64,000 bases of DNA. It comes from an uncultured Lactobacillales bacterium. Lineage in GTDB: Bacteria; Pseudomonadota; Alphaproteobacteria; CAAHEQ01; UBA3637. Positions 37,482-38,624 of the stretch are shown here, in pieces (within the stretch, counting starts at the first letter, position 1; each line of letters opens with the position of its first letter). A model generated the notes under the pieces. The model made no database searches. It saw only the letters and a list, made by a program, of their open reading frames with translations, and was not told the origin of the DNA. Made by a program: the position numbers and the translations under genes. The stretch is from positions 82,296 to 146,295 of the forward strand of contig CAYPVK010000002.1 in the NCBI GenBank assembly GCA_964414185.1, read 5' to 3'.

Positions 37482-38624
37482 TTAATCATTTTCCTTAAAA
37501 ATCGGCCTGCCTTGATAAAGCTTTGTCATTTGAGCTTCCATCAGTGTGCTGAGATTAATTTTCCCGTCGCGGATAATCATGCGCATTTGGTCGGCAACCG
37601 TCGGATTCGGATTGGCAAAAGCGCAGCTTAACGCGGGACGCAAAACTTTTGTCCCTTCCAATTTTTGATGGACGCATGCCAAAATGCCGCGGCCGAGCAA
37701 ATCGGCGGCCAAAGATTCTTGCAAATCGGCGGCGGTGGCGTATTTAATAATCGAATTCAAGGCGTCTTCCACGGAATTGGCGTGAATCGTTGAAATAACC
37801 AAGTGCCCCGATGTCGCGGCGCGCAATGTTTGGCTGGCCGTTTCGGGTGTACGGATTTCGCCGATTAAAATATACCGCGGGCGAGAACGCATGGCGGATT
37901 TTAACGCATCGCCCCAACGTTCGTTTTCAACCGGCGTTTGTTTACATAACCCCAACCCGCCGTTTTTGGAATGGTACAAACCGTCCAACGGCATTTCCGG
38001 CGGATCTTCAATCGTATAAACAAAGCCGCCGTCATTTTCCAAATATTTTTTAATCAGCGATGAACATGTCGTCGTTTTACCCATACCCGTCGGGCCGCCG
38101 ATTAAGATAAGTCCCGATTCTTGAGACAGGCTGACCAATTGGCGGACAATCGGTTCGGGCAAGCCGAGTTTAAAAATATCGGGCGTGGATTTCGGCATTT
38201 TGCGGCAGTTGTATTGAATGCCCGAAATGGTCATAATTCGTTCAACGCGGTATGATTCGCCCGCGAATTTAAGTGCATAGCTGGACGATCCCGTATAGCC
38301 TTGTTCCAATGCTTTGCGGAAATCTTCCATATCTTCCGTTTCAAGAGGCACCAATGCAAATTTGGTATTGACATCGCGGATATAAGTGACGCGTTCGGGT
38401 GTCAGCCATAAATCGGCAAAGAAAAAAGAATTAAGCGACGGTGCGTGAATGACTCTGTCATTTCGATTCGCCAATTCATCCATTGCTGCGGCGGCCGTCG
38501 TTTTGGGCGCGCCCATTCCCATAGAAACAGGACGCATCGCGGATTGTGCCGGTGCCGTTCCTATGAAGCCTTTTTGATCGTCATGTACCAATTTCGGCGG
38601 TTTAGGTGCAAAAAGCATAAACAA
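37482..38624 (-). CDS. PilT/GspE-superfamily secretion ATPase (PilT/DotB-like) with an ~50-aa low-complexity N-terminal extension. It is an orphan
   Basis: It has a Walker A motif (GGPTGMGKTT), an Asp box (VYTIEDPPEM), a Walker B/arginine-finger region (RYILIGEIRTPETASQTL) and a His box (TSGHLVISTIHANS). The N-terminal domain has PilT-like topology. No other pilus or secretion genes are nearby. Confidence 0.75.
   Translation of the reverse strand: MFMLFAPKPPKLVHDDQKGFIGTAPAQSAMRPVSMGMGAPKTTAAAAMDELANRNDRVIHAPSLNSFFFADLWLTPERVTYIRDVNTKFALVPLETEDMEDFRKALEQGYTGSSSYALKFAGESYRVERIMTISGIQYNCRKMPKSTPDIFKLGLPEPIVRQLVSLSQESGLILIGGPTGMGKTTTCSSLIKKYLENDGGFVYTIEDPPEMPLDGLYHSKNGGLGLCKQTPVENERWGDALKSAMRSRPRYILIGEIRTPETASQTLRAATSGHLVISTIHANSVEDALNSIIKYATAADLQESLAADLLGRGILACVHQKLEGTKVLRPALSCAFANPNPTVADQMRMIIRDGKINLSTLMEAQMTKLYQGRPIFKEND

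Follow-up and report, generated by a model that had tools for sequence, protein, structure and literature searches.

Among type IVb (T4b) pili, a retraction motor is known in some cases only: the bundle-forming pilus (BFP) has a retraction ATPase, whereas the toxin-coregulated pilus (TCP) and the colonisation factor antigen III (CFA/III) pilus do not (PMC5207764). In the Tad pilus motor CpaF of Caulobacter, the ATPase is preceded by a disordered N-terminal region, truncation of which lowers both pilus extension and retraction and does not abolish ATPase activity (PMC12019362). Here we describe a gene for a PilT-like ATPase on the minus strand of a 64-kb stretch of DNA from an uncultured alphaproteobacterium (contig CAYPVK010000002.1; hereafter the window), which most likely occupies positions 37482–38618 and encodes 378 amino acids; residue numbers throughout refer to this 378-residue form. 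We propose, with a probability of roughly 0.65, that its product is a PilT-like retraction ATPase of the BfpF (type IVb pilus) type and that the gene has become physically detached from its pilus operon. PilT-like T4b retraction ATPases are already known; what is unusual here is the detachment and the conserved N-terminal motif on a disordered tether. The motor as such would be ordinary, and it is the arrangement, within a housekeeping neighbourhood, that is not.

T2SSE is the sole Pfam domain in the window ATPase (E = 2.7e-30), and the protein misses the cutoff of every curated NCBIfam model. Its best match is the PilT/PilU model TIGR01420 with 127.5 bits (cutoff 319.1); lower scores were obtained with the models for PilB (77.8, cutoff 675.65), TraJ (TIGR02525; 77.2, cutoff 368.3), GspE (77, cutoff 630.25), DotB (TIGR02524; 68.7, cutoff 463.3), VirB11 (TIGR02788; 54.0, cutoff 249.95), TrbB (TIGR02782; 45.1, cutoff 304.55) and TadA (TIGR03819; 41.1, cutoff 373.15). 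When 72,556 plasmids were searched by tblastn, the best full-length matches were BfpF of enteropathogenic Escherichia coli (EPEC), a gene on an Escherichia albertii plasmid and a gene on a Methylorubrum extorquens megaplasmid, which aligned over residues ~62–377 at 33–36% identity with E values of 1e-38 to 7e-43 (EPEC BfpF: 33%, residues 62–377, 1e-38; the other two: 35–36%). All three genes come after a T2SSF platform gene in an operon of TcpQ, secretin, PilO, extension-ATPase and T2SSF genes. A neighbour-joining (NJ) tree built from 319 trimmed columns with 100 bootstraps, and with VirB11 (pAt) as the outgroup, recovered the family of the window ATPase as monophyletic in 100/100 replicates and united it with BfpF, the BfpF-like protein of E. 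albertii and the Methylorubrum protein in 96/100. Grouping with E. coli YggR, either alone or together with the BfpF-like proteins, was found in 0/100 replicates and grouping with TraJ alone in 1/100. Both VirB11 sequences and the extension ATPases fell outside the clade of the family and BfpF, and the long ATPases co-encoded with family members clustered with BfpD. Judged by this tree, the window gene belongs to a BfpF-type clade that is sister to the BfpF retraction ATPases; together with the model scores, the tree sets it apart from canonical type IVa PilT and from DotB, VirB11 and CpaF.

The motifs agree with this placement. As the initial annotation of this stretch had reported, a complete PilT-like ATPase is encoded on the minus strand, and Pfam and the alignment confirm a Walker A motif (GPTGMGKTT, residues 175–183, positions 38070–38096), an Asp box (EDPPE, residues 204–208, 37995–38009), a Walker B motif (YILIGEIR, residues 249–256, 37851–37874) and a His box (GHLVISTIHA, residues 271–280, 37779–37808; the longer span GHLVISTIHANS covers residues 271–282), with key residues that are invariant across a 27-sequence family alignment. 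The EDPPE form of the Asp box is common to the window ATPase, BfpF and BfpD, whereas YggR (PilT), TraJ, GspE and HofB have EDPVE; PRY before Walker B is common to the window ATPase and BfpF; and the C-terminal QMRMIIRDGK matches the position of the IRxxIRxGK element in BfpF-like proteins. In the alignment, the variants EDPPE, PRYIxxGEIR and TIH(A/G)xS are found in the BfpF clade but not in PilT or GspE. The reading of the TIHANS in the His box as CpaF/VirB11-like, put forward initially, is not borne out: the BfpF clade shares TIHANS or TIHGSS, and the motif is for this reason no evidence of an affinity to CpaF or VirB11.

The protein has the two-domain layout of PilT, with a PAS-like N-terminal domain identified by sequence and structure matches (residues 56–140, 38199–38453) and a RecA-like C-terminal ATPase domain (residues 141–378, 37485–38198), and has neither the N1 domain nor the zinc motif of extension ATPases. 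Its AlphaFold2 model has a mean predicted local distance difference test score (pLDDT) of 84; residues 1–42 are predicted to be disordered (pLDDT <50) and the remainder is confidently folded. In Foldseek searches the model fits PilT and PilU chains best, with template modelling scores of about 0.6–0.7, and the order of matches is the same as that of the solved relatives ranked by sequence, in which PilT/PilU come first (Aquifex PilT, 6.7e-25), DotB next and then PilB/GspE, with CpaF and VirB11 marginal (CpaF in the PDB: E = 1.6e-6, residues 173–295 only).

Among the described systems, BfpF and the proteins encoded at its operon position in E. albertii and Methylorubrum share most with the window ATPase: besides the sister-clade relationship and the common motif variants including the C-terminal element, they are 31–36% identical to it over the whole core and match it in size and two-domain layout, and orthologues of the family hold an equivalent operon position downstream of a T2SSF platform gene. 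They differ in that identity is only about a third and that the window gene lies outside any pilus operon, divergent from rimP. The window ATPase also has an N-terminal motif and disordered linker of ~55 residues (up to ~320 in relatives), of which BfpF has no equivalent, and the hosts of the family are uncultured, mostly gut-associated Alphaproteobacteria in which the gene is chromosomal.

The genomic contexts of the orthologues, surveyed by clustering the open reading frames (ORFs) of 86 loci, link the family to T4b pili. The operon-linked members are the furthest from the window ATPase (52–56% identity, 321–339 residues), and in loci L077, L079 and L082–L085 the ATPase gene is the final gene of a co-directional T4b pilus operon that encodes, in this order, a TcpQ-domain lipoprotein, a PilN-type secretin (276 bits with TIGR02520, cutoff 288), a PAP_PilO protein, a PilP-like protein, an extension ATPase of 550–569 residues, a T2SSF protein, two to four PilS/bundlin pilins and the ATPase. 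Locus L081 is incomplete, with only pilins visible upstream of the ATPase gene, and the upstream genes of L080 differ. These operon 3' ends, together with the bootstrap grouping with BfpF, give the "uncharacterised machine" of the initial annotation a concrete candidate, namely a BFP/R64-like type IVb pilus. In the middle subgroup (57–63% identity), the ATPase gene mostly follows znuC-znuB. In the subgroup of the window itself, which was seen only detached from T4b operons, it is divergent from rimP-nusA-infB or located beside mfd or recA, followed by a block of DUF5665, family 4 glycosyltransferase (GT4), glutathione S-transferase (GST) and lpxB genes. Two features of these contexts are recorded as observations. 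In the middle subgroup (L036–L075, e.g. L036, 7549–9983) the ATPase gene lies directly 3' of znuC-znuB in the same orientation, separated by ~20–60 nt, and znuA is divergent; co-transcription with the zinc transporter genes is possible, and we take the arrangement as synteny and not as a sign of function. In L028, L044, L050, L054 and L071 (e.g. L044, 8876–9655) the gene directly upstream, which has the same orientation as that of the ATPase, encodes a conserved protein of 260–280 residues; it has no Pfam match, is confined to one branch of the window subgroup and is absent from the window.

A scan of metagenomes with the extension ATPase listed 80 further T4b operon loci (L100–L179). The family ATPase gene is co-directional after the pilin genes in 14 of these; in 8 it directly follows the platform gene in inverted orientation, and it is absent from at least 11 otherwise complete operons with 5.5–10 kb of downstream sequence; in L154, for instance, the operon closes with pilin genes, followed by convergent genes. 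All cis-encoded copies fall within the operon-linked branches or deeper ones and lack the N-terminal extension, and each T4b operon seen carries its own BfpD-like extension ATPase of 550–570 residues. The ATPase-less operons fall mostly into two clades of the extension-ATPase tree, one of them basal, with L109, L129, L138 and L157 singly scattered; the orphan window subgroup likewise forms one side of the basal split in the retraction-ATPase tree, mirroring the basal clade of ATPase-less operons. This pattern fits a motor gene that, as we infer, moved out of the operon in some lineages. Homologues of virB3/virB4 (43–53% identity) are encoded divergently just upstream of ATPase-less T4b operons in L147, L154, L158, L170, L171 and L179, and adjacency of type IV secretion system (T4SS) and T4b pilus genes is recurrent in the relatives. 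In favour of the relocation, the window subgroup has scattered single pilin genes with an operon-type leader and N-terminus (GRSMVEMLGVLAIIGVLS, with Glu at +5), which were seen in L004, L017, L030, L035, L038, L044, L050, L054 and L071. In addition, a pilin-like gene ends a co-directional block in L096 (1–10492) that is headed by a TrbL/VirB6-like gene and contains genes for several large proteins without Pfam matches.

Residues 1–55 form an N-terminal extension; they are rich in Ala, Pro, Met and Gly and have no counterpart in BfpF, YggR or the operon-encoded members, so that the extra Ala/Pro/Met-rich N-terminus of about 50 residues noted initially stands, at a length of ~55. It consists of a short conserved hydrophobic-basic/Pro motif, MLFAPKPPKL (residues 1–10, 38589–38618), defined by homologue alignment, and a disordered linker (residues 11–55, 38454–38588) delimited by alignment and AlphaFold2. 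A recognisable core is present in the 117 best homologues considered; the stretch ahead of it has a median length of 144 residues (range 13–320) and is 35 residues or longer in 114 of them. Of these 114, 105 match a loose form of the motif M-[FLI]-[FL]-x-[KP]-[KP]-P-[PK]-[LK]. Most of the detached members carry the motif, and it is retained even at 57% core identity, as MIFAPKPP in L036. A further motif, [YF]A[RK]P, is weak; it is found in 65 homologues and corresponds to AMRP at the aligned position of the window ATPase. The linkers, composed of 17% Pro, 11% Glu, 11% Ala, 10% Thr and 9% Ser, are hypervariable in length and sequence, with indels even relative to UBA7488, whose NusA is 97% identical to that of the window. 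We considered the PP in KPPK as a stalling element dependent on elongation factor P (EF-P) and rejected this generally, as many members start with MFFSKK or MFSLKKK and have no PP.

The combination of a conserved tip with a disordered tether of hypervariable sequence is suggestive of a short linear motif that binds the membrane or a partner. Tentatively, and as a possibility that we consider less probable than not by a wide measure, the motif (M-Φ-Φ-x-K/P-K/P-P) and its linker of 13–320 residues may constitute a new recruitment or tethering module, which would bring a trans-encoded motor to the membrane or the T4b machine and would have arisen where the motor gene left the operon. If this were true, it would be the first PilT-like retraction ATPase tethered by an intrinsically disordered region (IDR), and would offer a handle on how retraction and extension motors compete for the platform. 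A literature search of incomplete coverage brought up no description of a comparable module on a motor of the PilT/BfpF type. The closest precedent we found is the disordered region of CpaF, which likewise precedes the ATPase of a type IV filament motor. CpaF, however, belongs to a distant ATPase clade, has a three-helix bundle and is bifunctional, and the accessible part of its description mentions no M-Φ-Φ-x-K-K-P-like motif at the extreme N-terminus (PMC12019362).

The ATPase family is tight on the searches made. A word-indexed search returned more than 120 proteins at 62–98% core identity, few of which are named, and these generically as "TadA" or "PilT". When 1.84 billion cluster representatives were searched exhaustively with HMMER, the yield was only about seven 50%-identity clusters at ≥44% identity and, below 44%, a broad cloud at 35–40%. 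The 80 loci listed in GTDB species representatives come nearly all from uncultured Alphaproteobacteria or proteobacterial metagenome-assembled genomes (MAGs), and the sources of most listed loci are rumen, caecum, rectum and human, rabbit or horse gut. Across genomes of the window subgroup the ATPase core is 60–81% identical, compared with 78–82% for NusA, 67–75% for IF2, 55–66% for RbfA, 49–58% for RimP and 58–61% for LpxB. Beside the values for NusA, IF2 and RimP, this identity indicates that the ATPase core is under strong purifying selection. The closest GTDB relative is UBA7488 (L076, 3967–5160, DLOI01000006.1), with a NusA 97% and a RimP 94% identical to those of the window; its ATPase gene is spread over three frames with an ambiguous base, which probably reflects a fault of the assembly and not a pseudogene, and its linker differs from that of the window by a 9-residue indel.

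Based on the homology to BfpF and PilT, we propose the following hypothetical mechanism, in which (i) the ATPase would form a hexamer that docks beneath the T2SSF-type platform of a T4b machine whose genes lie in another part of the genome; (ii) ATP hydrolysis would pull PilS/bundlin-type pilins back into the membrane, resulting in pilus retraction; and (iii) the N-terminal motif and linker might, more speculatively but as their most plausible role, act as a tether or recruitment element that concentrates the motor at the membrane or the machine, or might regulate its access. Likely outcomes would be aggregation and dispersal, contact with surfaces or cells and possibly uptake.

Several observations weigh against this proposal. 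Retraction activity is deduced solely from homology to BfpF and PilT. The phylogenetic placement suggested by the initial annotation was carried out as an NJ tree, which groups the protein with BfpF and not with YggR, TraJ or VirB11; its reference set is small, with YggR as the single type IVa representative and without PilU, DotB proper and CpaF. Across the 64-kb window, Pfam scans of the main ORFs, a prepilin-motif scan and tblastn with type IVb pilus proteins detected no gene for a pilin, a platform protein, a secretin, an extension ATPase or a second T2SSE protein and no tad gene, in accordance with the initial description of the ATPase gene as an orphan between a protein with two transmembrane segments (DUF5665) and rimP. 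None was found either in the ~1.7–3 kb of same-sample contig sequence past either window end, which was reached through exact GatA and MurC matches and added gatB and murB-ddl-ftsQ-ftsA (~68 kb in total). Proteins identical to those of the window are present in Logan assemblies of SRR14160763 and SRR14160765. The virB3-virB4 pair of the window adjoins gatCAB and not a T4b operon; the T4b operon is thus not beside virB3-virB4 here, and could have been lost from the genome. An orphan ATPase gene and a T4b operon were never placed in one genome by any of four approaches: homologue searches with the extension ATPase of L079 retrieved only 82–100% identical proteins of the operon-linked clade and no link to an orphan; a search with a pilin of the window subgroup turned up isolated pilin genes in housekeeping surroundings, in one case behind a TrbL gene, and in no case a machine; comparison of the flanks of ATPase-less operons with the window and the orphan loci (blastn, tblastn) gave distant homologues only; and the extension past the window ends added no pilus gene. 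The scattered pilin-like genes themselves produce only sub-threshold N_methyl matches in Pfam and no PilS or Bundlin globular domain. Finally, the 321-residue znu-linked members are detached and yet have no N-terminal extension; the extension is for this reason not simply a consequence of detachment, and the N-terminal module appears to be lineage-specific and not strictly coupled to it. The initial annotation had set its orphan reading against clustering within canonical PilT together with type IV pilus genes elsewhere in the genome; what we find resembles this in spirit, with a type IVb instead of a type IVa affiliation and with the pilus genes in related genomes only.

Some of these observations would also be accounted for if the T4b machine had been lost and the ATPase kept because it serves elsewhere, for example in a different filament system, in DNA uptake or in regulation. 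The ~68 kb around the gene without a pilus gene, the replacement by gatCAB of the virB3-virB4/T4b-operon adjacency seen in relatives and the pilin-like genes of the subgroup without recognisable T4b globular domains are compatible with such a survivor, and the new N-terminal module could signal a new partner. We nevertheless regard this as unlikely, given that the core is conserved almost like IF2 subgroup-wide with all catalytic motifs invariant, that the window subgroup has kept intact prepilin-type genes whose N-terminus is of the operon type, and that the complete T4b operons without a cis retraction gene in the same radiation would need a trans partner if they actively retract; moreover, ~68 kb is a small fraction of a genome. 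Far less probable is the suggestion of the initial annotation that the ATPase energises the scattered VirB-type T4SS as a surrogate of VirB11 or DotB. It draws on the virB3/virB4-like genes in the same window (3600–3980 and 3994–6426, both on the plus strand), on the adjoining T4b operons and virB3-virB4 genes of several relatives and on DotB, which itself has a PilT-like fold and is second in the structural ranking. The scores with the DotB, TraJ and VirB11 models, however, are far under their cutoffs, the TraJ grouping is all but absent from the bootstraps, the outgroup VirB11 lies outside the clade with BfpF, and no Dot/Icm genes are present in the contexts examined. In addition, a close relative (L004, ATPase 76% identical) has a separate VirB11 beside VirB10, and the orthologues are embedded in pilus operons and not in T4SS operons.

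A function as an extension or bifunctional motor rather than as a dedicated retraction motor seems equally improbable. The precedent is CpaF, which does both jobs and whose disordered N-terminal region influences pilus dynamics (PMC12019362), whereas every T4b operon seen already has its own BfpD-like extension ATPase. The window ATPase also fails to align with the N-terminal domains of the long ATPases BfpD, GspE and HofB and with their Cys-rich insert near the C-terminus, and it clusters with the retraction paralogue. A canonical type IVa PilT/PilU serving a type IVa pilus encoded elsewhere would be consistent with TIGR01420 as the best NCBIfam match, with the "twitching motility protein PilT" label given to some family members by the Joint Genome Institute (JGI) and with the solved PilT/PilU structures (PDB 2ewv, 3jvv, 6ojx, 9n32) as the best solved relatives, which have the PAS-like and RecA-like layout and the four nucleotide-binding motifs in common with the window ATPase and presumably also a hexameric retraction-motor mechanism. 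This is nonetheless hardly credible in view of the wide gap to the family cutoff, the failure to group with YggR and the motif variants, which follow BfpF; no type IVa genes (pilB, pilC, pilMNOPQ or type IVa pilins) are present in the window, and all operon-linked orthologues are in type IVb operons with TcpQ, a PilN-type lipoprotein secretin, PAP_PilO and PilS/bundlin. We therefore retain the BfpF-type retraction ATPase as the preferred explanation.

The start of the gene was assigned by reading the sequence directly. The minus-strand ORF extends over 37482–38624 and would encode 380 residues if counted from the TTG at 38624. A Shine-Dalgarno-like AGGA (38626–38629, minus strand) precedes the in-frame ATG at 38618 by 7 nt and is just 1 nt from the TTG, and the homologues compared for the choice of the start codon begin with M-[LF]-F-A-P-K-P-P-K. 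Because of this spacing and these N-termini, the true coding sequence most likely starts at the ATG rather than at the TTG. An exact-sequence lookup of the 380-residue protein gave no match, and the TTG start is probably wrong. The AT-rich divergent intergenic region shared with rimP (38619–38850) is the presumed location of the promoters; a scan for promoters and terminators around the gene gave weak consensus matches only, among them a sigma-70-like one on the minus strand at 38789–38761.

Pfam scans of the main ORFs identify the window as core chromosome of an alphaproteobacterium. The gene order runs from gatA, the virB3/virB4-like genes, rpsB-tsf-frr-uppS-cdsA-rseP-bamA and lpxD through to lpxB, then over GST, the GT4 glycosyltransferase, DUF5665, the ATPase gene, rimP-nusA-ylxR-infB and pnp, and ends with mraW-ftsI-murEF-mraY-ftsW-murG-murC. 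The immediate neighbours of the ATPase gene are those for the DUF5665 protein (36959–37405) and RimP (38851–39360), both on the plus strand; neither the DUF5665 neighbour nor the conserved upstream gene of relatives (c45) gave a functional lead. An ORF at 50169–51200 (+) was considered as a pilin gene owing to a weak match to a pilin cluster and was rejected, as it encodes a Sec-dependent Cys-rich repeat protein of 343 residues with a Sec signal peptide, a C-terminal hydrophobic segment and no Pfam match. Relatives fuse similar Cys-rich repeats behind a type-IV-pilin N-terminus, resulting in giant pilin-like proteins (L007, 155–1972, 605 residues; L030, 4652–5836, 394 residues; L071, 237–1514, 425 residues). 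Two further ORFs of the window are fusions or apparent fusions: one of 949 residues at 55980–58829 (+) with two full sets of Mur ligase domains appears to be a murE-murF fusion, which is also a single gene call in the Logan contig L182, and one of 1141 residues at 14833–18258 (+) combines a major facilitator superfamily (MFS) transporter, an acyltransferase and an AMP-binding enzyme, resembling the LplT-Aas lysophospholipid recycling fusion.

In summary, four arrangements of the same motor occur within one radiation: its gene closes the operon, adjoins it in inverted orientation, is absent from it, or stands as a housekeeping-like orphan with a new N-terminal module of motif and linker. As a natural series, these arrangements lend themselves to the question of what enables a retraction motor to find its machine. 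For annotation, our results suggest replacing the "TadA" and "PilT" labels on these MAG proteins, the former of which are generic in NCBI records, with "BfpF-like type IVb retraction ATPase". If the proposed assignment is correct, the poorly known, uncultured Alphaproteobacteria of the gut would invest in dynamic type IVb pili.

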